The position numbers and the translations under genes are program-made. From assembly GCA_017625695.1 (NCBI GenBank), contig JAGAKI010000069.1, positions 2,228 to 66,227 on the forward strand: a stretch of DNA of 64,000 nucleotides, in the 5' to 3' direction. A model generated the notes under the pieces. That model was not told the origin of the DNA. It saw only the letters and a program-made list of their open reading frames with translations, and did no database searches. This document shows positions 4,630-62,788 of this stretch, piece by piece (position 1 is the stretch's first letter; each line of letters starts with the position of its first letter). Origin of the DNA: Clostridia bacterium. GTDB taxonomy: Bacteria; Bacillota; Clostridia; UMGS1840.

Positions 4630-5046
4630 ATGAAATTTTTAAAAAAACTGTTCCCTGTGATTCTGGTTGCCGGCACTGTTGTTACGGTATCTGCACTGGC
4701 ATCAGGAGACGACCCGCTGATTTCCTTAAGCTACTTAAACGAAATTTTTATGCCCAAGGTAGAAACTAAAATCGCAGAAACTACCGTCTACTCCGTCATC
4801 ACCGTGGAAAAGGGAAAAACCTTTGTGGCAGGTGCAGGCTGTGAATTTATCGTAAGAAGTGGTTCGGCATCTGTCATTTCTTCCGCAAGCGGCGGCATCT
4901 GTGATACCACTGACGGTGTGGATTTATCCGGAGGAACCGTTGCTCCGAGCAATCATCTTTTGATTGCTCCCCGTGATGACGGAAGAGGCTTTTCGGCAAC
5001 TACTGACGTTATCTTAATGGTAAAAGGTTCTTATACCATCCGTTAA
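4630..5046 (+). CDS. hypothetical secreted protein
   Basis: 138 aa with an N-terminal signal-like segment MKFLKKLFPVILVAGTVVTVSALA. No family recognised. Confidence 0.55.
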   Translation: MKFLKKLFPVILVAGTVVTVSALASGDDPLISLSYLNEIFMPKVETKIAETTVYSVITVEKGKTFVAGAGCEFIVRSGSASVISSASGGICDTTDGVDLSGGTVAPSNHLLIAPRDDGRGFSATTDVILMVKGSYTIR

Positions 5047-5118: not shown

Positions 5119-5330
5119 ACACTTAAAGTGTGCAACGAAAAATCCTGCCGTTCACGTCAGCCGGGTATTTATTAGAACCAACACTTTTTATAAGGGAGCC
5201 AATCTCCTCTCGTCAATTGTAGGCCCACCGCCTTTACGGCCGTATGGGGAACGTGCGACTGAGGGTAAGCACCCACCTGCACATGCAGGTTTCTAATATT
5301 ATCTTGGGGCAACGGTCCGGCGGGTTTTTT
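5119..5330 (+). ncRNA. ssrS: candidate 6S RNA (SsrS-like)
   Basis: About 210-nt non-coding interval. The 5' segment AAAAATCCTGCCGTT...TATTAGAACC is complementary to the 3' segment GGTTTCTAATA...AACGGTCCGGCGGGTTTTTT, giving a long interrupted closing stem. The internal GTAAGCACCCACCTGC resembles my recollection of the CTTACACCCACCTAC stretch of B. subtilis 6S-1. It ends in a T-run. Confidence 0.5.
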
Positions 5331-5409: not shown

Positions 5410-5420
5410 GATAAAAAGGA

Positions 5421-5810
5421 TGCAGAATTTGAACATCGAACCCGAAGCTGTATATAGGATACTGCGAGTGGTGAAATTCACAGATTCTGCGCTTTTTTCT
5501 ATTCCCAAAGGCGCAGAGAAAAGGCTGCAGAATTTGAACATCGAATCCGAAGCTGTATATAGGATACCGAGAGTGGTGAGATTCACGAATTCTTCGCTTT
5601 TTTCTATTCCCAAAGGCGCAGAGAAAAGGCTGCAGAATTTGAACATCGAACCCGAAGCTGTATCTAGGATACTGCGAATGGTGAGATTCGCGAATTCTTC
5701 GCTTTTTTCCATTCCCAAAGGCGCAGAGAAAAGGATGCAGAATTTGAACATCGAACCCGAAGCTGTATATAGGATACTGCGAGTGGTGAGATTCGCGAAT
5801 TCTGCACCTT
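5421..5810. repeat. 105-bp tandem repeat, 3 full units plus a decaying 4th
   Basis: TGCAGAATTTGAACATCGAA recurs at 5421, 5526, 5631 and 5736, an exact 105-bp period. Units differ at only a few positions. Confidence 0.95.
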
Positions 5811-5830: not shown

Positions 5831-6013
5831 CTACTCGTAGAGTGCCTCCTTCAACCTTTCTTCCATCCGTTTTATCACAAAACTTCCCCTGGCTTTCGGG
5901 GGTAAGGTTGGTTTTGGAGGTGTGAGGGCTTTTTTCCACTGTGTGACAAACTGACGGAATTGAAAGAGTTGAAACACTTGTAATAATATCAGAATCAATA
6001 GTAATACGGTCAT
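5831..6013 (-). CDS. small membrane protein (single N-terminal TM, basic Pro/Lys tail)
   Basis: 60 aa, MTVLLLILILLQVFQLF.... Its start overlaps the stop of the 597-aa gene as ATGA (6010-6013). Confidence 0.5.
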   Translation of the reverse strand: MTVLLLILILLQVFQLFQFRQFVTQWKKALTPPKPTLPPKARGSFVIKRMEERLKEALYE

Positions 6014-7803
6014 AGCTTATCTCTCTCCTTCCTGATGTGAAGATAGATATTTAAAATGGTCAGTTTTTTGGTATCCGCCGGATTGGCAGTTCCAAAAACC
6101 TCCAGTAAAAAGATGTTGCCCGATACCTTCCAGGGGAAAAAGGATTCCGAAAATTCACTGTCAAGATACCGGTATTTCCAGTTTGTATTCCCGTACATCA
6201 GATGATTGGTGTGCAGTAATTTTCCTTCCCGGGATTCCTTTTCCGAAGAAAGCTTCAGATAACAGTCAATCTCCCTGGGCATTCCCAACGCTTTAACCAC
6301 GACTTCCTCACAACGGGCAATTTCATTTTCTTTGACAGTTCCCAAAACCGGTGCTGTCATATGATACGAAATAGGAACGTCGGTATCGGTTTTTGGATCA
6401 TAATCGGTAGATACCCCACCGGCAAACGCCGTTACATACCTTCCGGACCCCATCAGAATATTCCCGTCGTAGTCTTCTGTCATACAACTGCAAGTAATTC
6501 CCTCATAACAAAGGAAGGCGGAAAGGTAAAAATTATACAGATACATGACGGAATCAATCACCAAATACAAAACACCGTTTTTGTAATAAGAAAACGCTGT
6601 TTTTTCAGGTTTTGGCAATCGGATTTTATCTCTGGACAAAAATTTGTACAAAGAACTGGAGGGTGAATACAACATCTGAACCGTCAGCATAGAAGAAGAA
6701 AAGTTCATCAATCCGCTTTCAGACAAAAAGCTGACACTTCCCGGCGTAGAACAAACCGTTTTTCCGTAAGGAGTACCGTCCGGCACACTTAACAGGGACC
6801 ATTGCCCGTCTTCGGTGGGGTCCGAGCCGACATAATGACTCCAACCGTATTCATATGCAACTACCACCGATTTTTCCACCACGGAAAGACCCGTAATTTT
6901 CCCCAGATGCAAATGCGGGTACAGCACATTTTCTTGGGAGTAAGTCTTCCAGTCATTGGGTTCACTGATATAAAGTGCCGTAGGATGGTCGGGATGTCCG
7001 CCTGCAAAATAGCGCATGGAAGCGGGATGCCACACAATGTAGGGACACCGGATTGCCAGTAATCCCGTTGCATCAGGTGTAGCTACTTTTTCAAAAACAT
7101 CTGATAAAGAATAACATTTTGTACGTTCAAATCCGGAATGACTGCAATAGAGTGTTCGCAGGTTCAGCTCAGCTTCCAACGCCTGTTTCTGTTTCATATG
7201 CAATAAATCGCCCAATTTCCCCAATTGCACAAACTGAGAGGTACCAAGCAAGTCACGGATGTTCTCACGAGTGGCATCGGTATGACTTTTCGCATAATAG
7301 AGAATGTTGGTTTCTTCATCCCAGATATTGGTGCCATATAAATCGGCAGGAAAATCTCCCGAAGTAGAATAATCCTCAGGCAAACGCTCAATCACCAGGT
7401 ATCCCTCCCAGGGATGCTCGACGATGAGGACACCGTCCACACGGCGGTAGATCGGCTTCAGCTGACAGATTGTTCCACCGTACAGAAAGGTAAAACCGTC
7501 GGTTACGGGAAGGACCTTAAAGTTGGTTGCAGTCATACTGAGATTGCACATGACGCCTGCCACCAGGATGTGCAGAGTGTTTTTGCATTGCACAAATAAG
7601 ATTTCGTGTCCTTTGGTGCTTAATGCCTTATGAATGTTGGTAACCTCCCCCGAAAAGGGACCGTATTTTCGTTGGGTACCGTCTCTGACGGTCAAACCGC
7701 CTCCCTCCACGTCCAGATTGGTCAAATCCAAAAGTTCGTTGGTTTTCATCAGATAGGGCGATTTCTGATTGACAATTCCCCCGGAAAAATCATAGTAATT
7801 CAA
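6010..7803 (-). CDS. phage virion-associated protein, aromatic/beta-rich (possible nozzle or tail-tubular-B-like)
   Basis: 597 aa with a TTG start 8 nt after GGAGG. Its position downstream of capsid and adaptor-like genes matches podovirus gene order. No motif recognised with certainty. Confidence 0.45.
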   Translation of the reverse strand: MNYYDFSGGIVNQKSPYLMKTNELLDLTNLDVEGGGLTVRDGTQRKYGPFSGEVTNIHKALSTKGHEILFVQCKNTLHILVAGVMCNLSMTATNFKVLPVTDGFTFLYGGTICQLKPIYRRVDGVLIVEHPWEGYLVIERLPEDYSTSGDFPADLYGTNIWDEETNILYYAKSHTDATRENIRDLLGTSQFVQLGKLGDLLHMKQKQALEAELNLRTLYCSHSGFERTKCYSLSDVFEKVATPDATGLLAIRCPYIVWHPASMRYFAGGHPDHPTALYISEPNDWKTYSQENVLYPHLHLGKITGLSVVEKSVVVAYEYGWSHYVGSDPTEDGQWSLLSVPDGTPYGKTVCSTPGSVSFLSESGLMNFSSSMLTVQMLYSPSSSLYKFLSRDKIRLPKPEKTAFSYYKNGVLYLVIDSVMYLYNFYLSAFLCYEGITCSCMTEDYDGNILMGSGRYVTAFAGGVSTDYDPKTDTDVPISYHMTAPVLGTVKENEIARCEEVVVKALGMPREIDCYLKLSSEKESREGKLLHTNHLMYGNTNWKYRYLDSEFSESFFPWKVSGNIFLLEVFGTANPADTKKLTILNIYLHIRKERDKL

Positions 7804-7815
7804 AACCGTTTCCTC

Positions 7816-8346
7816 CTATCTCCACTCCGGTGTTTCAATGGGTGTTGGTCGTTTTCTTTGTCTCTTTGCGATACTCTCGTGAATGGCAGTACAGTTTCCG
7901 TGAAACTCTTCAATCAGAGTATCTGCCAAACGGTTGGAGGGATCATCGGCACGAAGGACGGAAAATGCCACATATTTGCAAAGCTCCGAATCATATTCCG
8001 GAGCAACCGGGATAGGCTCTTCCGCCGATAGTTCTCCGGAAAATACGCTGTAATAATAGACCAGATAACTGCCCGGTTCTGAAAAAGAAAGCCCTCTCTC
8101 ATCACATTGGTAGTCAAAATAGCGATGCTTGTCCCGATAGATTTTGTAAATCCCCCTGTGTTTGGGTAAAGGATAGGGAATGTCCGTCTCGGTACACTCC
8201 ACCGAAAGGCATTTGATAGGACAGGCAGTATCATATTTGGCAAACATCAGCCGAAGTCCTTCCGTGAGATAAATTTTTGCAAGTGAAATATCCACCTGCT
8301 TTCCGATGAGGATGGATGCCACATCGGTTACTTCCTGTAAGGTCAT
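7816..8346 (-). CDS. phage head-tail adaptor-like protein (tentative)
   Basis: 176 aa with a strong AAGGAGGA RBS. The N-terminus MTLQEVTDVASIL resembles connector/adaptor family starts. Assignment rests mainly on position. Confidence 0.4.
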   Translation of the reverse strand: MTLQEVTDVASILIGKQVDISLAKIYLTEGLRLMFAKYDTACPIKCLSVECTETDIPYPLPKHRGIYKIYRDKHRYFDYQCDERGLSFSEPGSYLVYYYSVFSGELSAEEPIPVAPEYDSELCKYVAFSVLRADDPSNRLADTLIEEFHGNCTAIHESIAKRQRKRPTPIETPEWR

Positions 8347-8374
8347 GGTATATCCTCCTTATGTTTTGTTTCAT

Positions 8375-8770
8375 TTATATAAAACGCGTAGAATAGGCAT
8401 CCCGATCTACGGTGTCTTTGGATTCATGATGATTCAGATACGAAAGCACCTCTTTGGTTTTCACACAAGCTTCCTCAGGAATTTCCCGGTTTTTTTCTTC
8501 CAGTCTCCGGTTGTTTTGATCCATCTCGGAAATCAAGGTATCCAGGTTGGAAATTCTGGTTTTTTGGACCAGGTCCAGGGTTCTTGCATCCAGCTCCGGA
8601 TAGGGTACCGTCAAACAATAGGTGGTTCCTGCCTGCCCGCTGTGATGCACCTCGAAGGTCTTTTTTTCGTGATTTCTTACCACAAAATAATTGGAATCTA
8701 TTTCCCTGAGACGTTCAGGAATCCGATAAACATTAGTTAAGATAGGTGTAGTTTGAAACTGTTTTTGCAT
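8375..8770 (-). CDS. hypothetical phage-module protein
   Basis: 131 aa with RBS AGAGGAAG. Located directly after the post-capsid terminator. Confidence 0.5.
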   Translation of the reverse strand: MQKQFQTTPILTNVYRIPERLREIDSNYFVVRNHEKKTFEVHHSGQAGTTYCLTVPYPELDARTLDLVQKTRISNLDTLISEMDQNNRRLEEKNREIPEEACVKTKEVLSYLNHHESKDTVDRDAYSTRFI

Positions 8771-8785
8771 AGCTTCCTCTTTTTT

Positions 8786-8813
8786 GAAAAAGGGAGGAGA
8801 AAAGTCTCCTCCC
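8786..8813 (-). terminator. intrinsic terminator directly after the capsid gene
   Basis: On the minus strand, GGGAGGAG-acuuuu-CTCCTCCC followed by TTTTT. It lies 16 nt upstream of the next start codon. Confidence 0.6.
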
Positions 8814-8932
8814 TTCTGTTGATAGGGAAACGGGAAAAACTTTTAAACTGGCACACCGAACCATAAGCATACCAAGTGTCTGCCCGGTGATACGGTTTGT
8901 TTTCCGAAGCTTTTTCCCATTTCCTTTTTACA

Positions 8933-10081
8933 TTACACAGTAATTCCTGTGAGTCTTGCCTGACCGCCCGGGTGGTCACACATTAACTCGCCGTATTTGG
9001 CAAGCACAGCGGTCCAGGCAGGTTTTCCGGCAATCTGTTTTAAGATTTTGCCGTCATCATCCAGCCAATCCCAATCGGACAGAACGTGCATTGCAAACGA
9101 TTTGGAGTTCAACAAATCCATCGTGCCGTCAGGACAGTGACGGTCTGCAACCACGGGAATTCCACCAAAGGAAATTGCCTGGAAACCGCCCTCTAAGGTC
9201 AAGGGATCAATATTTCTTCTGGTTAATTCCAGATAAGACAGATAACTTCTTCTCACATCGTAGGAACAGGAAATATAGTCCACGGTGGAGCCGGCGGTTT
9301 CTTCCAGATAGTCGATGGCAGTCTGAATTTTCAAATCAGAAATTTCACCGGTATTTGCCGACAGATAGGGCATCATCCAGTAATTTTCCGCACGGTTCAC
9401 ACCGTAAAGAGTCTGAGTAGTATCGGAATTAAAAATGGCACCTAAGCCGGTGAGTTCCTTTCCGTAAGAATTCTGAACGGTTATCTTATCTCCCTCTGAC
9501 GCAGAGGTTGCCGAATCCAGTACCAGAACTTTTTCTGCACGGTTAATGGCAATAATTCGTTTGCCTTTTTCCGTATAGGAGGGACCGATGATATCGATAA
9601 TCATCCCTTCCATCAGATACTTAACCGAATCGACAAAAATCTGATTTGCTGCTGCTACCATAACGGTTGCAATCACACCGCTGCCGTCGGTAAATAAAGC
9701 TCTGGAATAGTTGAATTTGGCAGCTTCTAAGATGCCTTTCATTTCCTCAGTGAGTAAATCCACAAAGGAATTGGTGTTCAGACGTGATGCTTTCATGGCT
9801 TTATCGGAAATTTCGATTACTCCATACATATCTTTGGTGGTAGTCTCAAAATGAGTGTAGTTGTTGGAACCTGCTTTGGGCAAACTGCCGGAATCGGAAG
9901 AAAAACCGAAGCCGCCATTTAATGCATAGGGAGCAAGTCTTACCACCTTGTTACCGATGATGTTTTTGGAGGTTGTAACAATTTTGTTGTAAAAAGGGTT
10001 GGTGTTTGTGTTTAACTGGTTTCTTAAAACGTCCAGATAATAGCTTTTTAAAGCCACGTCTGCTGTGTTGGTAGTAATCAT
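8933..10081 (-). CDS. phage major capsid protein (HK97-fold type)
   Basis: 382 aa. Typical capsid-family layout (MYGVIEISDKAMKAS..., ...GGFQAISFGGIPVVADRHCPDGTMDLL...). It directly follows a scaffold-like gene. Confidence 0.8.
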   Translation of the reverse strand: MITTNTADVALKSYYLDVLRNQLNTNTNPFYNKIVTTSKNIIGNKVVRLAPYALNGGFGFSSDSGSLPKAGSNNYTHFETTTKDMYGVIEISDKAMKASRLNTNSFVDLLTEEMKGILEAAKFNYSRALFTDGSGVIATVMVAAANQIFVDSVKYLMEGMIIDIIGPSYTEKGKRIIAINRAEKVLVLDSATSASEGDKITVQNSYGKELTGLGAIFNSDTTQTLYGVNRAENYWMMPYLSANTGEISDLKIQTAIDYLEETAGSTVDYISCSYDVRRSYLSYLELTRRNIDPLTLEGGFQAISFGGIPVVADRHCPDGTMDLLNSKSFAMHVLSDWDWLDDDGKILKQIAGKPAWTAVLAKYGELMCDHPGGQARLTGITV

Positions 10082-10124
10082 AATTGCGAAGTCCTTTCTT
10101 TTCGTTACAGGTAAGAGATTTCTC

Positions 10125-10658
10125 TTACTGTTTTACCATCTGAAGAAACAAGTCTCCTGCTTCTTCAAAAGTTTTTGGTTTGGTGCCCGGAGTGGTATAA
10201 AACTCACCGCCTTGTCCGGCAATCATTGCCGGGGGCATCTGAGACAGACTGCTCGCATACTCACGATAGATGTGGGGCGGAGTTGTAAGCATCCGTTTGA
10301 CAAAGGTGAAGGCAGCCTGGTTATCCAAAGACAAAAGCTCAGGATTTTCGGTCAGATAAGAGATAAATTCGTAAGCCCGATCAGTTAAGGCGTGCTCCTG
10401 TAAGAATTGATCAAGGTCACTTTGGAATACTGCAGTTTCATCCGGGATAGCGGAATCCTTCAGGAGTTCACGTGCCTCTTTTAATTCTTCTCTGGTCTGG
10501 GAAATAAATTTTTCGCTTTCGCGATAGGCTTTTTCCAATTCGGAATAATCTTTGAATTTCCCGAGAATCAGAGGAGGTTCTCCCCCGTTCCCGTCCTGAT
10601 CGGTCTCAAGTGAAGGTTGGAGAGACTCCAACTGAGTTTCATTGGGATTATCAATCAT
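10125..10658 (-). CDS. phage capsid scaffolding protein (tentative)
   Basis: Start moved to ATG 10658 (MIDNPNETQLE) behind AGGAAGG. Acidic, helix-prone, with GKFKDYSELEKAYRESEKF, a pattern common in scaffolds. Located immediately upstream of the capsid gene. Confidence 0.6.
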   Translation of the reverse strand: MIDNPNETQLESLQPSLETDQDGNGGEPPLILGKFKDYSELEKAYRESEKFISQTREELKEARELLKDSAIPDETAVFQSDLDQFLQEHALTDRAYEFISYLTENPELLSLDNQAAFTFVKRMLTTPPHIYREYASSLSQMPPAMIAGQGGEFYTTPGTKPKTFEEAGDLFLQMVKQ

Positions 10659-10909
10659 TTTGGTTCCTTCCTTTCTGTATATCAAAATGTTTGCCGGAAT
10701 ACCGTTATCACTACCACATCCGGGACTTCTTGCGGCTTCCGTCTCACACAGTATGTCAAATTCCAACCCCTTTTACAAGTTCAACATTTTACCCGCTTTT
10801 TCGTCACATCAAAAGGCAGAAACACAAGAATCCCATTCCTATTTACCAAATAAACATTTTTCCCCCACCAATTCGGTAAATAAAAATACAGAAATTCGCC
10901 AAGAGTTTC

Positions 10910-46160: not shown

Positions 46161-48953
46161 TTAGTCAACCATTTCAACAAAGATAGAGTTTACGTTCATA
46201 TTTCTGTTGAAGTAAATGGTAGAACCGGCAATTAAGTCCGCTTCGGTTAAAGATACATATTCTACTTTACCATTTTTGAATCTAATGCCTGTAACCTGAC
46301 AGTTGTTACCAATGTGGTAAGCTGCACCGTCATCCAGGAACAGTCTGTAGTCAGTTATCTTTTTCAGAGTACCGATTAAATATCCGGGCATAATGTTCTG
46401 ATGCCACTGTTCGATGGTCATATCAGAACCGTCGGAGCTCTTGGGATATTCTTCCACACCGGTGATATAAATTTCGTTGTTGCAGAACAGTGCACCATCC
46501 ATGAATTCTACCTTCATACCTACTTCCAGTTTATCGGGAGCAGGTTCGTTAGAAGGTCTGTGGTGAGTAACAGTCCAGGAAGGATCAATCGCAATAGAAT
46601 CTAATTCCCATTCGATATCGCCACTGTCTAACACCACTTCATAGTAGTTCTTATCTGCTTCAGCATCATATCTTAAGGTAATGGAATCGATGGTAGCATC
46701 TCTATCACCCTGGTGACGGCGAACCTTATCGGTATTACCGTATAAGAACCAGAAGCTGGGAGTAGATGCGTTGGGTTCTGCAAACATTGCAATATTAACT
46801 CTTAAGGTATCGCTGCTCATATTGAAGGTACCGTGTGCTAATAATTCATTATAAGATTTTTCCATAACACCTAACTGACCATCAATGTTGGTTAAAACGA
46901 CAAATCTTTCGTTACGAATGTAGAACAACTGAGTGGAAGCTAAGCTGCTGCCGATACCGGTAGTAATACCATTGGTAGTGGTAGTAGGTAAGTAAATTGC
47001 ACGATAATCACCGATAAAGTGGTCTAAGGGAATGTTAATTGCAGGCAGACAAGGAACAGTCTGAGTCACAATTTCCTTAGTAGTAGAATCCATATAGCTT
47101 ACATCATGTTCTTCACCGAATAAGAGATAGTAATCAGGTTCAGAAATCTGAGTGATTACACCTTCGTCGTTAACAGTAAACTTAAAGAGCTTATCAGTTG
47201 CATTCATCTTGTCGCTCCATCTCATTGCATTTGCTGCAATGCTGGATGCGGAAGAGAACACGGTAGTGATATCGCTTACCGGAGTTGCCGGATTGTCAAT
47301 GAGTTTAGAAGCCGGGAAATCTACAGGCAGAGTAACAACCGCTTCTTCTACATCAGGGTAAATTTTCTGAACTTTAATTTTGATATCCTCAAAGCCCTTC
47401 TGGGAAGAACCTACGATATAAGCAGTAAACTCATTTTTCGCATTCAGTTCACCGTTTGCTTTGATGTAACGAACGTTGCCGAAGATATCTACATAAGCCA
47501 TAATCTGTGTTTCATAGATACGATCGAAGTTATTTTCTACATAATCTGTACCGTTTTCGGAAACATAAATATCTTCTTTGGTGGGATAGAAATGTCTACC
47601 GATTTCAATTTCGTTATCCGCCATACTTCCGAAATTGCCGGCAATTGTTTTTTCGGAAACTACGATTACCAACAGATCATCACTCTGATAATAGTAGAAT
47701 AAACTTCCGGGTTTGATCTGAGTACGGTCTGTGCTTCTGCCATCGATGATAACCATAATGTCATCATATTCACCGACTCTTTTCAGTCTGCCGGCAGATT
47801 CACCTTTTACGTAAGCAACAAAACTGTTGTTCACTTCAGTTACCATACCTGCTTCCTGAAGATTCCAGGTTTCGATAAAGGTAACTTTGTTATTGATTAA
47901 TACGATTTTTGCATATTTTCCGGCTAATTTTACAGGAGTTCTTACGATTTCACCGTTGTAACTTACTTTTGCACCCGCTGCAATTCTGTATTCTTCTTCA
48001 TCACGTTTGAGTTCAATGTTATCAACCAGATTCAGTGCATAAGCATTGTTCGGATTGGTATCATTGTTTACGCTGTAAATTACATCGTAGAATACTTCTA
48101 CATTGGTCTGGGGAGTAATGTAGATAATCATACCATCTTTATCTGCCCAAAGTTCAACGGGAATATTGTAGTAGAAGTTCAGGTCCACTTTACCGTTGGT
48201 CAAAAAGTCATAATCGTTACCAACAGTCAGCAGTTCCGGATTTGCACCGGAAACATTTTTGGTAATGTTTACTTTTGCACTCTGTTTCTGATTGTTTACT
48301 TCAATAATAGAACCGTAGTAACGGGAAATTCCGAAATACTGAGACAGTACAGTCTTTTTATTACCGGAATCTTCCAGATTTGCAGTACCGTTACTATCAT
48401 AGCTATAGTTAAATTCGGTAATATCTGCAGTTAACAGATTGTAAATTAATTTACGGAACTGTTTCACGGTAACAGTATCATAAGTGCTAACAGCAACATC
48501 TTTGTACAGACGCAGCTCGGTTACGGTTTTCATATTACCTGCTTCGCCGCCGCCATTTACAGCTGCAATGGTTTCATAAGACAGTAATTTAATTACTGCA
48601 GCGTTGAAATCATGGAAGCTGATGGGGTCGTTGGGGCAGAACATATTGCCTTCGCTAGGTAAGAAACCGTTGATGGTTGCATAGTAGACATAACCGGAGT
48701 ATTCGTCATCAGCCGGAACATCCACATAAGCAGTTTCTCTGGGTTCCATTTCTTCGTTGCTTAAAATACTGGAAATGGTGTATGCAAATTCTTTACGAGT
48801 TACTAAATTGTCGGAATCTGCAGAACAAGATAATGGCATAATGCTGAAGTTGGAAATGACTTCACTTACGCCGGACGAAGCTGCAGAAACAATCTGGAAG
48901 GAGCCAAGAATCAGCGCCAGAACCAGAAATAAAATTGTACCTTTTCTCATCAT
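46161..48953 (-). CDS. large secreted protein with degenerate N-terminal SLH-like repeats; remainder unknown, beta-rich
   Basis: 930 aa with signal peptide MMRKGTILFLVLALILGSFQIVSA. SLH-like VTRKEFAYTISSIL / YVDVPADDEYSGYVYYATINGFL. Its start overlaps the upstream stop as ATGA. Confidence 0.65.
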   Translation of the reverse strand: MMRKGTILFLVLALILGSFQIVSAASSGVSEVISNFSIMPLSCSADSDNLVTRKEFAYTISSILSNEEMEPRETAYVDVPADDEYSGYVYYATINGFLPSEGNMFCPNDPISFHDFNAAVIKLLSYETIAAVNGGGEAGNMKTVTELRLYKDVAVSTYDTVTVKQFRKLIYNLLTADITEFNYSYDSNGTANLEDSGNKKTVLSQYFGISRYYGSIIEVNNQKQSAKVNITKNVSGANPELLTVGNDYDFLTNGKVDLNFYYNIPVELWADKDGMIIYITPQTNVEVFYDVIYSVNNDTNPNNAYALNLVDNIELKRDEEEYRIAAGAKVSYNGEIVRTPVKLAGKYAKIVLINNKVTFIETWNLQEAGMVTEVNNSFVAYVKGESAGRLKRVGEYDDIMVIIDGRSTDRTQIKPGSLFYYYQSDDLLVIVVSEKTIAGNFGSMADNEIEIGRHFYPTKEDIYVSENGTDYVENNFDRIYETQIMAYVDIFGNVRYIKANGELNAKNEFTAYIVGSSQKGFEDIKIKVQKIYPDVEEAVVTLPVDFPASKLIDNPATPVSDITTVFSSASSIAANAMRWSDKMNATDKLFKFTVNDEGVITQISEPDYYLLFGEEHDVSYMDSTTKEIVTQTVPCLPAINIPLDHFIGDYRAIYLPTTTTNGITTGIGSSLASTQLFYIRNERFVVLTNIDGQLGVMEKSYNELLAHGTFNMSSDTLRVNIAMFAEPNASTPSFWFLYGNTDKVRRHQGDRDATIDSITLRYDAEADKNYYEVVLDSGDIEWELDSIAIDPSWTVTHHRPSNEPAPDKLEVGMKVEFMDGALFCNNEIYITGVEEYPKSSDGSDMTIEQWHQNIMPGYLIGTLKKITDYRLFLDDGAAYHIGNNCQVTGIRFKNGKVEYVSLTEADLIAGSTIYFNRNMNVNSIFVEMVD

Positions 48954-51900
48954 ATACCTAACACCTCCATCATAACATAAATTACTTTTGCGGTCTGTGC
49001 TCTGGTTGCGTTTGCGATAGGAGCAAAGGTGTTTTCGCCCATACCATTAATAACGCCAACTTTTTCTAATGATAAAACAGCTGCTTTTGCATAATCTGCA
49101 ATGGCATCAGCATCTGCAAATTCTGCTTTACCTTCAGCAAGGGTAATACCTAATCTCTGGAAGGTTCTGTAAACCATAACAGCTAAATCCTGACGGGTAA
49201 TCTGCTGACCTAAGCCAAAGGTTCCATCCGGATTTCCTTTGATAATGCCTAAATTCTGAGCAGTTGCAATGTAAGAGGTTGCCCAATGGTCTTCAGCTAC
49301 ATCGGTCAGATTGGATACTGCTTTTGCATCGTGTGAACCAATTGCAGTTACAATCATTTTTACAACTTCTTCACGGGTGATATTGTCCATCGGACGGAAT
49401 TTTCTTTCGTCGTTTTTGGAAACGATGCCTTTACCAACTAAGGTATGAACCATATCTTTAGCCCAGGAAGCTTCTTCCATATCGTCGAAGAAATAGCCGG
49501 ACTGTTTATCGTCTTCTTCTTCCACTTTTTCCTTCGGAGGAGCAACATATCCGCCACCGCCGGAGCTGCCGGAAGGTCTGCTTGCAGGTTTCTCAGGTTT
49601 CTGACGAATGGTTGCAGTAATGCTGCCACCGGTTACTGAGATGGGTAAATCAACAAAAATTTTATTGTTCTGTTCATCTTTCAGACCGGTATCAAAAGTA
49701 TAAATAACAGATGCTTCTACATCAATGTCATGAGTTCCGATCACAGATGCCTGCAGAGCGATTTTACCAACTTCATCGTAGGAAATGGTTTCATCATATG
49801 CAAAGCCGATGGTGAAGGTTGCAGTATCTCCGTCGATAACAACTTCGTTGGAAATTGCATCTTCTGCTACTGCTTCTGCGTTTTCAAGCAGGTCTGCTTC
49901 TTCAGTAGTTACGACTACTTCAATTGCTTTTACTTTGGTCTGTGCATTCTGGAAGTCAACCGGAATTGCAATTTCACCTGCATAGTATGCAGAGGTAATT
50001 GCGTCAGAAAGGTCCAGACTGGTAGGAGTGATACCGTTGGTTTCTAAAATCCATGCATCCAGTAAGGTTGCAATTCTTTCTAAGAACGCTTCTTCAGAAG
50101 TGCTGGGACCGTTTGTTCTGGTATCTTCTGCAATTTTATCAGAGAAAGAAGTTTTCTTAGTGTCGGTGTTTACTAAGTTTAATTTGTCGGAAGCGATACC
50201 GATTAACTCACAAGCATCCGCTTGATTTAAGAAGTTGGATTTAATGTAAGAACCGGTAGTTGCCTGGTTCATCTGTTCTAATTTCAGCATTTTGCCATAG
50301 AAAGGAGCAACCTCTCTCACAGCTGCAAAATCTTTTCCTTCAAAGTGAGCTAAGAATAAGTCTTCATTTGCTAAGCTGTCGCAATCTGCTGCATAATCAG
50401 GAACTAATAAAACTTCGCCGTATTCTTCAAAGATAGCATATACAGCATCGGAAGTGGTTGCATCTTCAAATAAGCCGATAATTCTTAATTCTTCTTCTTC
50501 CGATACATAACTTACAACTGCGGGTGTAGTTGCACCATATTCAGTGGTAACAGTGTAAGTGTAAGCACCTGCAGCTGTACCGTCTGCGATGTTGAATTCT
50601 ACAGTAAATGCACCGTCATCACCGGAGATTACAGTTTCAACTTCGTCACCTTCAGGAGAGGTAACAGTTACAGTTCTGCCTTTGATACCGTGACCGGTAG
50701 AACCCAATGCGGTACCTTTGATGGTTACCGCTTCACGGTAAGATTCCACTTCGGAAACAACAACAGCATCGATTCCTTCATCAGCGGAATCATCACCGGT
50801 AGTGAAGGTATAGGTTCTGTCATCCAATGCTTCTGCATCGTTGATACCCTGTAAATTGGTAACTTCTAACAGATATTCAGTGCCGTAAGACAGAGTTTCC
50901 AAGAAAGAAACAATGACTTTGGTTCCGTCAACATCAACTGCAACAGGAATTTCAGCACCGTCTGCGGTTAAGGTAGCTTCTACACCTGCCATCATAGTGT
51001 CGTTGAAGGTAATGGTTAAGTTATCGGTACCTCTTGTAACAGTTTCACCGTCAACGAAAGATTCGCTTTCAACGCCGGTTGCGTAAGGAGATACGTATTC
51101 CACTTTTACCCAAGCTAAACTGTAGTTAGAGAAACCATCTAAGGTTAAAGTATATTCGCCTTCCGTTAAGGAGAAGATACCAATTTCGCTGTAACCGTAG
51201 GTAGTTACTTCTACATCCACATCATTTTCTTTCACGGTTTTGGTAATTCTGGATACGGTTGCAGTTTTCACATCGTCGCCAAAATCAGCAGAAACAGTGG
51301 AAGAGCCTTCGGTAATACCCATTACGGAAACTTTGTATTTACCGTCTGCCGGAATATTTACGGGGAAAGTCAGGGGTGTGTTGCTTACATCAGCCTGATT
51401 GTAACCGTCATTAAAAATAACGGTTAAATCCCCGATTTCATTTGCGGATGCGATAGGAGCCACTAAAGCTGCTACGGTAGCATCTACAGATTCATCCAAG
51501 GTTAAAGTCATGGTTCTGAAGTTTACATATGAGGTAGATTTGTGATCTACATACACATAGTTGGTGCCTTCTTCCAAATAAATGTAACCTAAGTTAGTTG
51601 CATTTACAAAAGTATTCTGGTTCGCAGTTTTGGGTAAATCAGTTTCTAAAATACTCTTTTCGGTACGAACATAGAATTTTGCGCTGGGGGTTGCACCAAC
51701 AGAAGCATCCACATCAACAGAATAGTATCCTGCAGTGTCTGCGGTAACTTCAAATCTTACCCATTCACCTGCTTTCATATTCAAAGAAGCACGACTTATA
51801 GGGTTAGACCATACATCCAGGGGAGCGTAGGCTCTGTTGTTGTTTGTGGTACTGTCCAATGATCCAGATGTGGTGTCAAAGTACAGTTCACCTTGTCTGT

Positions 51901-52042
51901 TGGCCAGGGAGCCATAAGTCAATAAGTCCGTATATGATACGGTAATGGTTGTGTCGGTTGCAAAAGCGGGAATTACAAAATTCACTGCCATAACAACCAA
52001 GGTGAGTGCTGTTGAAAGCACTCGTTTCAAATTACGGTTCAT
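48950..52042 (-). CDS. S-layer-type protein: CBM-like modules, Ig-like domains, helical module, three C-terminal SLH domains
   Basis: About 1030 aa. Start set to ATG 52042, 6-7 nt after AAGGAGGA. Signal peptide ...VIPAFA. The C-terminus has three SLH repeats (FDDMEEASWAKDMVHTLVGKGIV.., LTDVAEDHWATSYIATAQNLGII.., FADADAIADYAKAAVLSLEKVGVI..). Confidence 0.8.
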   Translation of the reverse strand: MNRNLKRVLSTALTLVVMAVNFVIPAFATDTTITVSYTDLLTYGSLANRQGELYFDTTSGSLDSTTNNNRAYAPLDVWSNPISRASLNMKAGEWVRFEVTADTAGYYSVDVDASVGATPSAKFYVRTEKSILETDLPKTANQNTFVNATNLGYIYLEEGTNYVYVDHKSTSYVNFRTMTLTLDESVDATVAALVAPIASANEIGDLTVIFNDGYNQADVSNTPLTFPVNIPADGKYKVSVMGITEGSSTVSADFGDDVKTATVSRITKTVKENDVDVEVTTYGYSEIGIFSLTEGEYTLTLDGFSNYSLAWVKVEYVSPYATGVESESFVDGETVTRGTDNLTITFNDTMMAGVEATLTADGAEIPVAVDVDGTKVIVSFLETLSYGTEYLLEVTNLQGINDAEALDDRTYTFTTGDDSADEGIDAVVVSEVESYREAVTIKGTALGSTGHGIKGRTVTVTSPEGDEVETVISGDDGAFTVEFNIADGTAAGAYTYTVTTEYGATTPAVVSYVSEEEELRIIGLFEDATTSDAVYAIFEEYGEVLLVPDYAADCDSLANEDLFLAHFEGKDFAAVREVAPFYGKMLKLEQMNQATTGSYIKSNFLNQADACELIGIASDKLNLVNTDTKKTSFSDKIAEDTRTNGPSTSEEAFLERIATLLDAWILETNGITPTSLDLSDAITSAYYAGEIAIPVDFQNAQTKVKAIEVVVTTEEADLLENAEAVAEDAISNEVVIDGDTATFTIGFAYDETISYDEVGKIALQASVIGTHDIDVEASVIYTFDTGLKDEQNNKIFVDLPISVTGGSITATIRQKPEKPASRPSGSSGGGGYVAPPKEKVEEEDDKQSGYFFDDMEEASWAKDMVHTLVGKGIVSKNDERKFRPMDNITREEVVKMIVTAIGSHDAKAVSNLTDVAEDHWATSYIATAQNLGIIKGNPDGTFGLGQQITRQDLAVMVYRTFQRLGITLAEGKAEFADADAIADYAKAAVLSLEKVGVINGMGENTFAPIANATRAQTAKVIYVMMEVLGI

Positions 52043-52258
52043 AAGCAATCCTCCTTATCTTTTTGCTTGTAATTTGAGATATATAATAAATTTTTATTAG
52101 CAAAATCAGCAATATATAGAAATATAAAATATTTATTTTCAAATTCGGGGTTTCCCGGGCAGAACCTGCATGGGTTCTGCCCGAAAAACATTTGGTAATC
52201 AAATCAATCCTAAGAGGTCATATGCCTTCTTCGTAAGGTTTACTCACAAAGTAAGGAC

Positions 52259-55200
52259 TTAGTCCTGGGGAACATCCAGCATACGCATGGTTCTCCAAGT
52301 GGGATAGGTATCAATGTCTTCTAATCTGGTCTTATCTTCCAGGCCTGCTTCTGCCATAATTTTCTGTGCGGTGGTGTCGTAGCTGGATACTCTGTAGTTG
52401 TTACCTTGCAGAGCAACTTCATTGGTGTTGGTTGCGTTAGATCCATAAATCCTAGCGGGGTTACGACCATCAGTATGATTGTAGCCGGCAAAACAGTTAT
52501 TGATATTTACATACTGTCTTGCAAAGAACCAATAATCGGTGGTGGTAGTATAAGCTTCGGTTACTACGTTATCACAAACGAAAGTGTATCCGGTTCCCTG
52601 GTCGAAGTAGATACCGGGAGCTTTGACCTGACCCGGGTCGATGACATAGTTATCGTTAATCTGAGTGCCTCGGAGATTACCTAAGGTGTAGATATGAGCA
52701 CCGTCACCCATGGTCTGCATTACATCATCAATTTTGTTGTAGGAAATGATGTGGTTACCGCAGTCTGCAGGATCATCATATCCCCAACCCCAACCGATAA
52801 CGATACCGGAATAAGAGGTATCTTTAATATCGTTGTGGTGAATGTTGGCATTGCCCACATAATACACAGAAATTGCGGTTAAGCCCTGGAATTCCTGAGC
52901 AGTACGACGGAAGATGTTGTTATCCACTTCGATGTTCTGGCAACGTTCGGTAGTAGAGGATGCGGCGTTACCGTCTCTGTAGTCACCAAGTACCACGCCG
53001 GTACCGGCAAGATCGTGGAAGTAGCTTCCTGTAATTTGAGAATTGGAAACGCCTTCTTCTAAAATGATGGCGCTGGAGCCCATAGAACCGAATTCACAAT
53101 TCTTAAATACTAAAGAATCTGCATAATTTACCCAAATCTGACCGGGGAAAATGTGGGAACCGTAATAGGTTTCAGAACCAAGTCTCCATTCTTCGGTCTG
53201 GTTGAAGGCTGCACCTTTTACGGTGATATCATCATAACCGCCGTAACGGAATGCGATGCCGTCAAATTCCAGATTGGTTACCTTGTTAGCGGAACCAATA
53301 CCGGTAATGCTCATCATACGGTCAGTGGTTGCACACCAGGTTTCAATGGTGTTCATATCTTCCTGAGCATAGGGGTAATAGTACATTTTGCGAGTTTCTT
53401 TATCGAAGTAGAATTCACCGGGCTGATCCAACAGCAGGAGAGAGTTTTCTAAATAGAAACCTGAACCTGCGGTAGGAGTAATGGTAGAGGTGTGTAATCC
53501 ATCGATACAGAATGCATTGTAGTAAGGATAGGTAGTGTAAATGGATACATTGCCGTTGGTGCTGTTGTATTCAATACTGTCAATGGGGAAACGATGGTTT
53601 GCCCACTGCAGGCTGAATACAATTTGCATTCTGGACTGCTGGGTGGCAGTCTGCTGATCCAATCCTTGGGGGAAATCAGCATTTCCATAGCTGGAAACCA
53701 GAATACCATCCGCTACATGAGCATCGTTTTTCGGTTCAGCAGGAGAAATCTCTACGCCTCTGTACCAACCATCGCTTCTTGCCATGGTTGCCTGATATCC
53801 GTTTACAAACAAGGCTCTGGTTTCACGGGTGGTAGTAGAAGCTACCCAGTAATTTTCACCGTCTACCTTAGTCCATTTACCGGTCAGGTCTTCCCCGCCG
53901 GAAATCACAGGTTTGTTATCGGGATCTTCTGCACGAATGATTACTTTGTGTCCGTTTTTACCGCCCATGGTGGGATCAATTTCGATAGCAACGGAACTTT
54001 TGTAAGTACCGGGAGCAACATTAACGATAATGTCGCCGGTCATATCATTGTTGATGGTTTTTACAATTTTTAATGCATTTGCCAGGTTGTTTACGGGAGC
54101 TTCCTTGGTACCTGCATTGGTAGATTTACCGCCGGTGGAAACATAAATTTCACGGTAAGGCGTTGCGTAAACATCTTTTGCGTAGGGCTTCGCATCATCC
54201 ATATGGGAGAATGTCAGCACTTTTAAAGTGCAGCCCGCACCAAGATTGGTAAAGCTTGCAGTTGCAACATCACCTTCGCGGGTTAATGCGCTGATGGCAA
54301 CTAATTTGTTACCGTTATATACTGCAGCAACCATAGATGTATCGGACGGAATATGCATGCAGTTTGCACTTACATAAGCAGTGCCTGCAGGCAGAGCATC
54401 CACTTCCTGACCGGAAGAATCCTTCACAATAACAGTAGGATCTACGATACATTCGTTGTATGCTTCCAGCATTTCGGCTGCAGTTTCGTATTTCTGTGCC
54501 ACCATCTTCCAGAAGGACATGGGAGCATATACATGGTTTACGGTATCTGCATTCACGTCGATATTGGCTGCTTCACCGTATTGTTCCAGAAGGTCAAATG
54601 CACCTTCTGCAGTGGTAACATTTTCAAAATCATGAATCAGATGGTAAGCCATGGAGTTGGTATCTTCCAAAACAATAGAATCAAAGTAGAAGCTATCGCA
54701 GTAGAATACGAATTTTAAGGTATGGGTACCTGCAGTCAGGTAGAGCTGTGCCACTTCTTCCTGCAGATATGCCCAAGCGGAATCGGTTCTGTCATTCTGG
54801 AAATGCATGGTTAAGTAATCCACAAAAACATCATCCACATAAAGGTCGAAGTTTACATCTTTCCAAGCCGCACCAACCAGATTCAGATTGTAAATGGTGT
54901 CTTCGGAAACTTCTACGGTGTAGCTTGCAATGGATTCGCTCTTAATCGCTAACACATCTTTACCGTTGTAGGTAGCAACATTACCTGCTGTTTCCGCTTC
55001 AATTACGGTGTATAAGTTGGTGTTAGAAACATCGGGAAGTTCCGGAACGGGAGTTGCGGTAGGAGCGGAAGAAGAGCTTCCGGTATCCACCTTTAAGTTT
55101 TGTAAGTTCATCTGGGGACCCCATACTTCGTGGTCTGCCAGACTGTCTTCCCCGTCAGTCATAGAGAGACGCAACGCCGTTAAGGTTGCGATGGAGGAAC

Positions 55201-58000: not shown

Positions 58001-58061
58001 GTTTTGAACCCTCCTTAAGATGTAAAAACACAGTAGATTGCGCGGGGTTTTATTTTTTTGT

Positions 58062-58097
58062 TTCCGGAATATGCCAATTCTTTGGCATATTCCGGAA
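58062..58097. other. perfect 16-bp inverted repeat hairpin between paralogs 1 and 2
   Basis: TTCCGGAATATGCCAA-ttct-TTGGCATATTCCGGAA. T-runs flank it on the plus strand only. Confidence 0.8.
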
Positions 58098-58111
58098 TAT
58101 TTTTATTGCAA

Positions 58112-61100
58112 TTATTCGTCTGCGGGAACGTCCAGCATACGCATGGTTCTCCAGGACGGATAGTAATCCACGTTCTGAAGTTCCGTCTGATTGTCAACAC
58201 CTGCTTCAGACATAATTCTCTGTGCAGATAAAGACCAGCTGGTAACATTTACGTTATTGTTTTCCATGGTCACAGCATTGCTTGCGAAACCGTAAGAACC
58301 GTTTGCAGAAGGCATCGGACCGTCAGTGTGGTTATAAGAACCGTAACAGTCTGCAATGTCAACATATCTTCTTGCAAACAACCAACGGTCGTCGGAAGCT
58401 TTTGCATCGGTGAACACGTTATCGCTGAAGTACAGATCCTGAGTTGCCTGGTCAAGGTACAGACCGCTCTTTAACAGATTACCCGGGTCGATAAAGTAGT
58501 TATCGTTAATCTGGTTGTAGCCCTGCAAACCAACGGTGTAGATATGAGAACCATCATTCATAGTCTGCATTACATCTTCAATCTTATTGTAAGCCACAAC
58601 GTTGTTTCCGCAATCGTCGGGTAATGCTGCACCCCAGCCCCAACCAACGGAAATACCGGTGTAGGGCATATCTGCGATGTCATTGTGATGAACTTTGGAA
58701 TCACCGGTGTAGTACATTGCTATTGCGGTGGTACCTAAGAATTCCTGTGCACAACGGCGGAAGATGTTGTTGTCTACTTCAATATGGGTAGAACGCTGTT
58801 TATCGGTAGACATATTCACATCGTGTAAGAAGTTTCCGACTACAACACCGGTACCGGAAATATCGTGGAAGGAGCTTCCGGTTACACGGCAGTTGGTGTC
58901 CCCTTCTTCAAAGAGAACTGCACTGGAGCCTAAGTTTGCAAATTCACAGTTTTTAAATACTACGCTATCAGCATAGTTTAAGGTAACCTGTGCAGGGAAC
59001 ATATAGCTTCCGTACCAGATTTCGCCGCCTAAACGGAGTTCGTCTGCCTGGTTGAAAGCTGCACCGTTGGTGGTAGCATCATCATAAGCACCGTGCTGGA
59101 AGGAAATACCGTCAAATTCGATGTTTGATACCTTGTTGGTAGCGCTAACACCGGTAATAGTCATCAGACCATCGGTTACTGCACAGAAGGTTTCTGCAGT
59201 GTTCATGTTTTCTTCCGGATAAGGATAGTAATACATCTTACGATTGGTTTTATCGAAGAAGAATTCACCGGGTTCATCTAAAAGATCCATAGAGTTTTCT
59301 AAGTAGAAGGAACCGGTAGGCTGAATGGTAGTGGTGGTAGCATCATCATTTAAGAAGATGTGGTATCTGGGGAACGGAATGTATACATATGCGTATTCAT
59401 AACCGTAGTAATCAGCATAGACTACTTTTTCCACAGGGAAACGATGGTTTGCCCAGTTTTTCTGGAATACTACCTGAAGTCTGGTATCGTCAGCTAAGGT
59501 TCTGGGGAAGTCGGTATCCCACTGTTCAATATTAACCAGGAAGCCGTCTGCAACATGCACATCATTTACCGGACTTTCGGGAGTAATGACATCATCAGCA
59601 ATATACCAGCCGCTGCTTCGTGCCATAGTTGCCTGATAGCCGTTTACATATAATGCTCTGGTTTCACGGGTGGTGGTAGATGCTACCCAGTAATCTTCGC
59701 CGGAAACCTTAGACCATTTACCGGTTAAGGGTTCCCCACCGGATAAAATGGGACGGTTGTTGGGATCCTCTGCTTTGATGATAACTTTGTAACCGTTCAT
59801 ACCGCCCATGTTCTGGTCAATTGCGATGGTGGTATTGCTGCGGTAGGTACCGGGAGCAATGTGCACCACGATATCGCCGGTCATGGTGGTATTGTATGCT
59901 TTAACCTTGGTTAATGCCTGAGCGAGGGTTGCCACGGGAGTTTCCGGAGTCAGACCGTCGTTGGAGGATTTACCGGTCGTTGCTACATAAATATCTTTAT
60001 AAACACCAACAGAATAGTAGGGTTTTGCTTCTTCCATATCGGAGAACACCATAATTTTTACCTGGCTCTGGGTGGTTAAACCGGTTAAGGTACAGGTAAC
60101 GGTGGTGGAGGTGCTCTTTAAGGTGTTTAAGTTGCCTGCCATTTTGCTTCCCTGATATTCTGCCACAACAATGGTAGAATTTGCAGGCATATTGGAGGTG
60201 TTGATAATCAGTCTTGCAGTGCCGGTAGGTAAGCTGCTTACCGGAGTGTTGGAAGAATTGTATAACTTCACAGTGGGGCTGGAAGCCTCGGTGGAAATGA
60301 TGGAGTTATAAGTGGAAAGCATATCATCTAAAGATTCAAAATCCTTGCCAACCATGGGCCAGAAGGACATCTGGGGATAGAAGATATTTGCAGTATCATT
60401 TACCACGTTGATGCCAAGCAGGGAGCCATATTCCACTAAAAGATTGTATGCTTCCTGAGAGGTGGTGGCATCTTTGAAGCCATATAACAGGTGATAGGTT
60501 CTGCTGCTGGTGTTTTCCAGACGGAAATCATCAAAGTAGAACACATCACAGAAATAGGTAAACTGAAGGGTATGAGTACCTGCAGTTAAATTCATGGAGT
60601 AGATTTTTTCAGTCTGCAGCGGATAGGAATCTTCTTTATGCAGATTGAAATGCATGGTTTCGTAAGACAAATAGGTTTCGTCAACGGTGATGTCTACGGA
60701 AACGTCTTTCCATGCAGCACCTCTTAAATACAGGTTATACACACCGGTATCAGGAACGGTAATGGTATAAGTAGAGGTGGATTCGTTGGTAGCGGTAATA
60801 ACTGTCGCACCGCCGTGAGATCCCTGAGTGGTACCGCTCTGAGAGGTGTAGCTTTCTGCTTCGGTAATAATCATATATTCAGAATCGGTGATGTTGGGAG
60901 TTGCAGTGGGAGTGGGAGTTACCACAGGTTCTGCCGGCATGGAAGATACCGGTTTTACAAAGCTGATATAAGACATGGAGTCATATCCGGTGGCATTTAA
61001 ATAACCGTAATCTATGGTAGATAAAATCACCGAATTAGCACCAATATTTTTTAAGGTAAAGGTATTTGCACCTTCGGTAAAGTACATGGGCTGGTCAATC

Positions 61101-62710: not shown

Positions 62711-62788
62711 TGATAAGTCCTCCTTCAAACGATAATCGTTTGTATTTTATATGCCGGACAAAGATTAGCAGGTCCGGACAGTTCAGTA

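Follow-up and report, generated by a model that had tools for sequence, protein, structure and literature searches.

The 64-kb stretch of Clostridia bacterium DNA analysed here (the window, to whose positions all coordinates refer) carries six intact, tightly packed open reading frames (ORFs) on the minus strand at 5831–10766, between the core genes mnmA and serC. A preliminary description had recognised this block as a capsid-assembly module and offered three readings of it: a prophage remnant as the null hypothesis, a domesticated capsid-forming system, or a satellite that borrows a helper's portal, terminase and tail. We conclude that the block is probably the head-neck-nozzle operon of a vertically inherited, chromosome-fixed, podovirus-derived particle system that is split over at least two loci, and a domesticated capsid-forming system is the alternative that the evidence favours. 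Related loci are referred to below by L-numbers, which serve as labels.

The operon encodes a capsid protein, an adaptor, a nozzle protein, a protein in scaffold position and two conserved small proteins. The podovirus order of scaffold, HK97-type capsid, adaptor and nozzle that had been proposed from the letters alone was borne out by family models and by Foldseek searches with confident AlphaFold models, the scaffold being placed by position. The 382-aa protein (8933–10081) is a major capsid protein of podovirus type, matching PHROG 14242 (E 5e-53) and the NCBIfam model NF033394, capsid_maj_Podo, for which it scored 221 bits (cutoff 80); no other NCBIfam model matched at E ≤0.1, and a search for homologues returned 2916 proteins. 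Sequence-profile searches of the PDB gave almost nothing for the nozzle and adaptor (a weak SU10 match for the nozzle family at E 0.003, and none for the adaptor or the 131-aa family), so that a comparison of folds was needed. For the 597-aa protein (6010–7803, TTG start), an AlphaFold model built on an alignment of 91 diverse homologues (pLDDT 91.8, pTM 0.89) had as its best 29 Foldseek matches in the PDB only chains from entries of phage tail or portal-tail complexes (E 5.5e-18 to 2.5e-10), and the matched chain was a nozzle or hub protein wherever it could be identified. Examples are cyanophage A4 (5.5e-18), Pa223, SU10, the T7 gp12 nozzle (7boy_s) and P22 gp10-gp26 (8eap_D, 1e-12). On this model the protein is assigned to the podovirus nozzle class of T7 gp12, P22 gp10 and SU10 gp17, with a predicted beta-propeller core fold, and it aligned with the approximately 475-aa protein of the wider family described below at an hhalign probability of 98.1% (E 1.3e-13).

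The model of the 176-aa protein (7816–8346; pLDDT 88.9) matched podophage adaptors at E 8e-5 to 1e-3 with TM-scores of 0.43–0.66, among them those of KHP30 (8e-5), SU10 (7z47_B, TM-score 0.66), GP4, A4, VP1 and PhiM1, with T7 gp11 weaker. Its predicted helical bundle, inserted beta domain and extended C-terminal tail place it in the portal-adaptor class of T7 gp11 and SU10 gp11. The approximately 187-aa family found at the equivalent position in other loci aligned with it at an hhalign probability of 86.7%, and both end in a P.WR/RRW tail. The gene after the capsid gene encodes a conserved 131-aa protein (8375–8770) that aligns with the approximately 100–130-aa gene 3′ of the capsid gene in 25 other loci and carries the family motif Y.V..N...YEVH...VPY..LD.RT; it matched nothing in the PDB or in family models. 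In scaffold position lies a 177-aa protein (10125–10658) that no family model matched; by BLAST it groups with proteins encoded between the portal and capsid genes in 74 loci, and it has conserved motifs at its N terminus (ILGKFK..EL..AY) and C terminus (KPKTFEEAG). The last gene encodes a 60-aa membrane peptide (5831–6013) with an N-terminal transmembrane segment and a conserved, charged C terminus (PPKAR.SFV.KRMEE.LKEA.Y), and occupies the equivalent place in L007, L010 and L014. An encapsulin was also considered and was rejected, since portal, scaffold, adaptor and nozzle genes all belong to the family.

The layout of the block proved to be as first described in nearly every detail. Shine-Dalgarno-like purine runs precede all six genes, the membrane peptide gene is coupled to the nozzle gene by an ATGA overlap, and a consensus scan found a terminator-like or attenuator hairpin at 8795–8813 directly 3′ of the capsid gene on the minus strand, with an 8-bp stem followed by a T-rich tail. 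The ORF lister had placed the start of the first gene at a TTG (10766) giving 213 aa, upstream of the starts of its orthologues (176–179 aa); the ATG at 10658, which gives 177 aa, agrees with these and was taken as the start, as in the preliminary description. A missing protease had also been counted among the deficiencies of the block. A prohead protease gene is indeed absent, from the whole family, but this is no deficiency: the family has a gene in scaffold position, and podoviruses that use a scaffold, P22 and T7 among them, need no such enzyme for maturation.

If the block were a remnant left by a recent prophage deletion, its genes should be drifting neutrally. The same six genes adjoin serC-serA in the closest relatives (representatives of four GTDB species, together with several metagenome contigs), whose capsid proteins are 87–92% identical to that of the window, and at this serC-side locus at least five related species have all six in intact form. 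Pairwise ratios of nonsynonymous to synonymous divergence (dN/dS) between the window and five relatives, at dS of 0.5–3, were 0.07–0.095 for the capsid, 0.17–0.19 for the scaffold, 0.10–0.24 for the 131-aa protein, 0.10–0.16 for the adaptor and 0.09–0.19 for the nozzle gene. This range of 0.07–0.24 lies about within the span of neighbouring host genes (serC 0.03–0.06, prmC 0.15 and a 138-aa gene 0.21). The block genes are under purifying selection, as measured for the five larger ones. The capsid gene and serC have similar dS values, which fits a block that has diverged in step with its host, and from their conserved placement the structural genes appear to be fixed in the host chromosome and vertically inherited. 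Chimeric assembly of the window also seems unlikely, because both junctions are syntenic: the serC side in five species and the side with mnmA, the 138-aa gene and 6S RNA in L007. Although most phage functions are missing locally, and some cassettes of the wider family are clearly disrupted (one by insertion of type I restriction-modification genes and one by a prophage), we reject the remnant reading as highly improbable. Besides the intact genes and low dN/dS, it is contradicted by a locus, promoter and leader common to several species, by a GC content (0.42–0.46) equal to that of the flanks, and by a separately located portal gene that is even more conserved.

This portal revises the view of the block as an orphan. 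It is true that a tblastn search with the TerL and portal proteins of relatives found neither in the 64-kb window, but in this clade the portal gene lies elsewhere on the chromosome, at another conserved locus. In the sister lineage L008, whose capsid protein is 62% identical to that of the window, the portal gene adjoins the scaffold gene, and a search with the L008 portal retrieved a tight group of portals that are 76–91% identical to each other. One of them, a P22/SU10-type portal by its Pfam families, lies in the genome of the closest relative on a different contig from the module: in the metagenome-assembled genome (MAG) GCA_045638525.1 a 92%-identical module is on contig ...023.1, and the portal gene is on contig ...019.1 directly after spoIIIAA-AH. 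The portal gene is directly 3′ of spoIIIAA-AH on the same strand in this assembly and in four further lineages (portal loci L093, 9681–12179, and equivalents in L094, L096, L097 and L300). Because one lineage with this arrangement has a portal that is just 65% identical, the linkage to spoIIIA must be old. In addition, the exact capsid protein of the window was found in a metagenome assembly that also holds one of the portal loci.

The portal loci are themselves compact. A small ORF of 43–83 aa precedes the portal gene, its end overlapping the portal start by 8 nt, and a conserved ORF of 76–81 aa follows, after which come convergent host genes. Portal dN/dS was 0.046–0.067, and the portal is more conserved than the adjacent SpoIIIAA and SpoIIIAE; the ORF after it gave a dN/dS of about 0.05 in two pairwise comparisons, the others being saturated. 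No homology was detected between the small ORFs flanking the portal gene (about 81 and 79 aa) and the small ORFs of relatives that have a single cassette. By eye, and without a scan, no terminator-like hairpin was evident in the gap of approximately 80 nt between spoIIIAH and the portal gene. A literature search, in which not all journals were covered, found no paper describing this capsid family or the linkage of a portal gene to spoIIIA.

The two loci have a promoter motif in common. Upstream of the scaffold gene, at 10750–10783 on the minus strand, six species conserve TGAACTTGT-N14-TTTGG-CATACT, with TTTGA as an alternative to TTTGG; the motif combines a sigma-A-like -35 element (TTGTAA) and an extended -10 element with a conserved TGAAC on the upstream side. 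Directly after the spoIIIAH stop codon in the relatives, the portal operon is preceded by TGAMCTTGT-N14-TTTGC-TACAAT. When a single exact pattern was written to cover both forms, its matches were confined to these two kinds of site, in 9 loci among 177, and the strict motif occurred once in the window with no mismatch, where 0.23 occurrences would be expected at up to 3 mismatches. The motif reads as a predicted extended -10 promoter of sigma-A type with an additional TGAAC upstream, and we infer from its presence at both sites that the capsid and portal operons are probably co-regulated. In a comparison by eye with the consensus sequences of the sporulation sigma factors E, K, F and G, the -35 element and spacing fitted sigma-A better, and we do not propose a sporulation promoter. 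Between the promoter and the scaffold gene, the 5′ leader of the capsid operon (10659–10749, minus strand) contains a strongly conserved core of approximately 55 nt, GACGGAAGCCG...AAGTCCCGG...GTGGTAATCATAACGGTTTTCC, that is nearly invariant in six species at a divergence where synonymous sites are near saturation. The leader is predicted to form only a weak hairpin, with one compensatory pair; it may act as a regulatory RNA or be bound by a protein.

These observations also bear on whether the block could be a capsid-encoding satellite dependent on the portal, terminase and tail of a helper phage. A small, capsid-centred gene set with no packaging genes nearby is what such an element might look like, yet the window contains no integrase (Pfam searches of its other large ORFs returned housekeeping, sporulation and surface proteins only), and no att-like repeats or replication genes were found. 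In contrast to phage satellites such as PICI, cf-PICI and P4-like elements, the block has no integrase and occupies a fixed syntenic place in all relatives examined, with synonymous divergence similar to that of adjacent serC. Its cognate portal is encoded by the host chromosome, at another fixed locus that carries this promoter motif too, and the adaptor and nozzle are themselves tail parts, so that the tail of a helper would not be borrowed. We therefore regard a satellite as very improbable.

Capsid proteins belonging to the wider family are encoded by no fewer than 573 GTDB species, chiefly Christensenellales along with other uncultured Clostridia, and wherever the flanking sequence is long enough the family genes form a single cassette. 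Its order is a DUF1492 (sigma-region-4-like) protein, a divergent gene of approximately 260–330 aa, TerL, one or two small ORFs, portal, scaffold, capsid, a protein of approximately 110 aa, the adaptor homologue (approximately 187 aa), the nozzle homologue (approximately 475 aa) and three or four more proteins including DUF7934/LysM. Clusters of flanking genes recur at many of these loci, represented upstream by an SSB-domain protein and, on the other side of the cassette, by RNase J, an O-methyltransferase and a U32 peptidase; judged from these flanks, the cassette of distant Clostridia appears to occupy a fixed site between the SSB-domain and RNase J genes. No integrase or replication Pfam family was present in the gene tables of L002, L004, L007, L008 and L010. 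TerL is 52–64% identical across the family, with an invariant P-loop-like motif containing GKT. The gene of approximately 150–190 aa upstream of TerL (L004, 3270–3725, with equivalents in 39 loci) matched DUF1492 weakly, at E 1.8e-4, just above the Pfam cutoff. This family presumably resembles the RinA/ArpU late-gene activators, and the gene is a candidate for a dedicated regulator of the cassette; no counterpart was found near the window's module. In L004 serC and serA also adjoin the cassette, but on its opposite side and in that one lineage only, and we rejected this as a coincidence rather than a conserved placement.

Lineages nearest the window show a stepwise dispersal of the cassette. 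L178 and L008 keep portal, scaffold and capsid genes together, L008 having no TerL nearby but possessing an amidase and a holin, and the window clade has moved the portal gene to spoIIIA. Among phages, no capsid protein in GenBank was more than 29% identical, the closest being 28%. IMG/VR relatives at 40–51% identity are mostly short contigs, many with the TerL-portal-capsid cassette; those at 33–38% are on contigs of 9–55 kb, and some of these may be true phages. A scan of IMG/VR by TerL alignment found ordinary cassettes apart from three loci that have TerL with no portal downstream, none of them from the window lineage: L343, with a truncated TerL beside type I restriction-modification genes; L338, with a truncated TerL beside the terminase and portal of another phage; and L353, where the end of TerL is followed by a Y-family polymerase gene. 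These three indicate that the cassette decays in some lineages.

How the particle might work follows from these parts. Under the preferred reading of a split, podovirus-derived particle system, the capsid and portal operons would be co-expressed, the scaffold and capsid proteins would assemble a procapsid on the portal, and the adaptor and nozzle would close the neck. A terminase encoded at another place in the genome would then load DNA into the particle, and the system would act in the manner of a gene transfer agent (GTA), as does FpGTA of Faecalibacterium. The particles of a GTA carry random host DNA in pieces too short to hold the element itself and deliver it to recipient cells. DNA packaging, release and transfer are argued here by analogy, because the terminase of the window lineage was not found. 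Of the features by which GTAs and other viriforms are recognised, three are apparent from the comparisons above, namely fixed vertical inheritance, purifying selection and a lack of genes for replication, integration or lysogeny; as for the terminase, TerL is conserved in the wider family, and for the window lineage none was present in the inspected DNA, which amounts to about 64 kb in addition to some 20 kb for each locus.

Several points weigh against this reading. The terminase of the window lineage was found neither in the window nor within 10 kb of the portal loci, and three indirect hunts for it failed. The first was a homology search with a chimeric query of 1428 aa (nozzle, adaptor, 131-aa protein and two L008 tail proteins), which had no matches; the second was a scan of metagenome contigs with the promoter motif for regulon members such as TerL, which had no family genes among the 120 stretches listed; and the third was the IMG/VR scan for TerL. 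For the window lineage the inspected loci likewise yielded no genes for tail fibres, a needle, ejection or lysis. The link between module and portal in one genome comes from a MAG and from co-occurrence in one assembly, where mis-binning is conceivable; the common promoter motif resembles an ordinary sigma-A promoter except for about 5–8 extra common bases; the scaffold role of the 177-aa protein is read from gene position and conserved terminal motifs; and the particle itself is predicted from its genes.

An alternative that takes the missing terminase at face value is a domesticated particle that no longer packages DNA, having lost its terminase and acquired another role for the host as a killing particle, a protein container or a sporulation structure. 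Sister lineage L008 likewise has no TerL next to its portal gene, the retained genes are all under strong selection, and the portal gene ends the spoIIIA operon in every lineage seen. On the other hand, the absence of TerL is not established beyond the DNA inspected, an adaptor together with a nozzle would chiefly be of use as a channel through which DNA leaves, and TerL is among the best-conserved genes of the wider family; no GTA is known to lack a terminase. We consider the loss of packaging unlikely. A more speculative extension of the particle-system reading ties it to sporulation, with assembly in the sporulating mother cell and release at its lysis. The portal operon directly follows spoIIIA, a mother-cell operon, on its 3′ side, and there are no lysis genes beside the structural genes of the window lineage, unlike in L008. 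This extension is argued from gene adjacency, and we hold it to be rather improbable. Were it true, it would describe a GTA-like system whose producer-cell cost falls on a cell already destined to die.

The surroundings of the block are those of an ordinary chromosome, and the window has no tRNA gene. On one side lie nrdR, mnmA, the 138-aa gene and 6S RNA, and on the other serC-serA, the preliminary assignment of core genes on both flanks being upheld by Pfam (nrdR, mnmA, serC and serA) and Rfam (6S RNA at 5139–5330 on the plus strand, 83 bits). A syntenic copy of the 6S RNA is present in the closest relative, L007 (19162–19353), in which a leuABCD operon is located between it and the module; the window has no leuABCD there. 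The 138-aa protein (4630–5046, plus strand), encoded between mnmA and 6S RNA, has a signal-peptide-like N terminus, is 67% identical in L007 (dN/dS 0.21) and matched no family. A tandem array (5414–5803) of a 105-bp repeat, in 3.7 copies with 93% identity, separates the 6S RNA terminator from the 3′ end of the module. Each unit consists of a small GC hairpin and then a T-run, and long spurious ORFs run over the array on both strands; the repeat was absent from all relatives fetched and had no Rfam match. Far from the block, a run of very large genes on the minus strand (46161–63985) encodes proteins of 930, 1032, 1913, 1538 and at least 398 aa. SLH and Big_5 domains are present in the 1032-aa protein, and beta-helix and GH141-insertion domains in the next three; Pfam matched nothing in the 930-aa protein. 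The set probably degrades glycans at the cell surface and is probably unrelated to the capsid block.

Among known systems, the closest parallel is FpGTA of Faecalibacterium prausnitzii, which forms podovirus-like particles of 40 nm that package 8.4–8.9 kb of host DNA (PMC12946183, Nat Commun 2026). Its operon I (TerS, TerL, portal, capsid and nozzle) and operon II (fibres and lysis) are 125 kb apart (PMC12946183). The likeness extends to a podovirus-like structural cluster in gut Clostridia, the order TerL, portal, small protein, capsid and nozzle, the lack of integrase and replication genes, the division over two chromosomal operons, and near-ubiquity in the host group. However, the FpGTA capsid is named as N4-gp56 family (RCH50849.1) whereas that of the window is capsid_maj_Podo, a comparison by family name only, which suggests an independent or very distant origin; because the NCBIfam assignment and the given name denote different families, we treat FpGTA as analogous and not orthologous. 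The split in the window lineage also differs, as it falls between portal and scaffold and leaves the portal gene attached to spoIIIA, and for FpGTA particles, proteomics and packaged DNA have been demonstrated whereas our evidence is from genes.

The alphaproteobacterial GTAs of RcGTA type resemble the window system in having a phage-derived structural cluster that is vertically inherited under purifying selection with no genes for self-propagation, and accessory loci that are scattered in the genome and co-regulated. They differ in being siphovirus-like, with a prohead protease, a long tail and other protein families, and in their regulation by CtrA and GafA; the terminase of the window lineage, moreover, was not located in the inspected DNA. 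With the virion modules of P22, T7 and SU10 the system has in common a portal of the P22/SU10 Pfam families, scaffold-assisted assembly without a protease, the gene order, a dodecameric-type adaptor fold and a beta-propeller nozzle fold, but its genes are chromosomal, fixed and split, with no replication, lysogeny, lysis or fibre genes nearby. PBSX, of the Bacillus defective prophages, is likewise a domesticated phage-like particle of spore-forming Firmicutes; it packages host DNA and requires lysis for release. It differs as a myovirus-like, tailocin-like killer encoded by one contiguous locus of approximately 28 kb.

Gene transfer agents are well characterised almost solely in Alphaproteobacteria. 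The first podovirus-like one was reported in 2026, in Faecalibacterium, and GTA-like packaging of 4–7-kb fragments has been observed in Christensenellaceae with no gene cluster identified (PMC12946183). The family described here, present in several hundred species at fixed chromosomal sites, strongly conserved and devoid of genes for self-propagation, is a candidate for part of this unexplained packaging in Christensenellaceae and other gut Clostridia. To this the window lineage adds a natural split version, in which one promoter motif ties two loci, and a portal gene stably attached to an operon for sporulation. Confirmation of particles and packaging would extend the range of domesticated phage particles known from gut anaerobes and would offer a tractable case of how such gene clusters can be dispersed and yet remain co-regulated.

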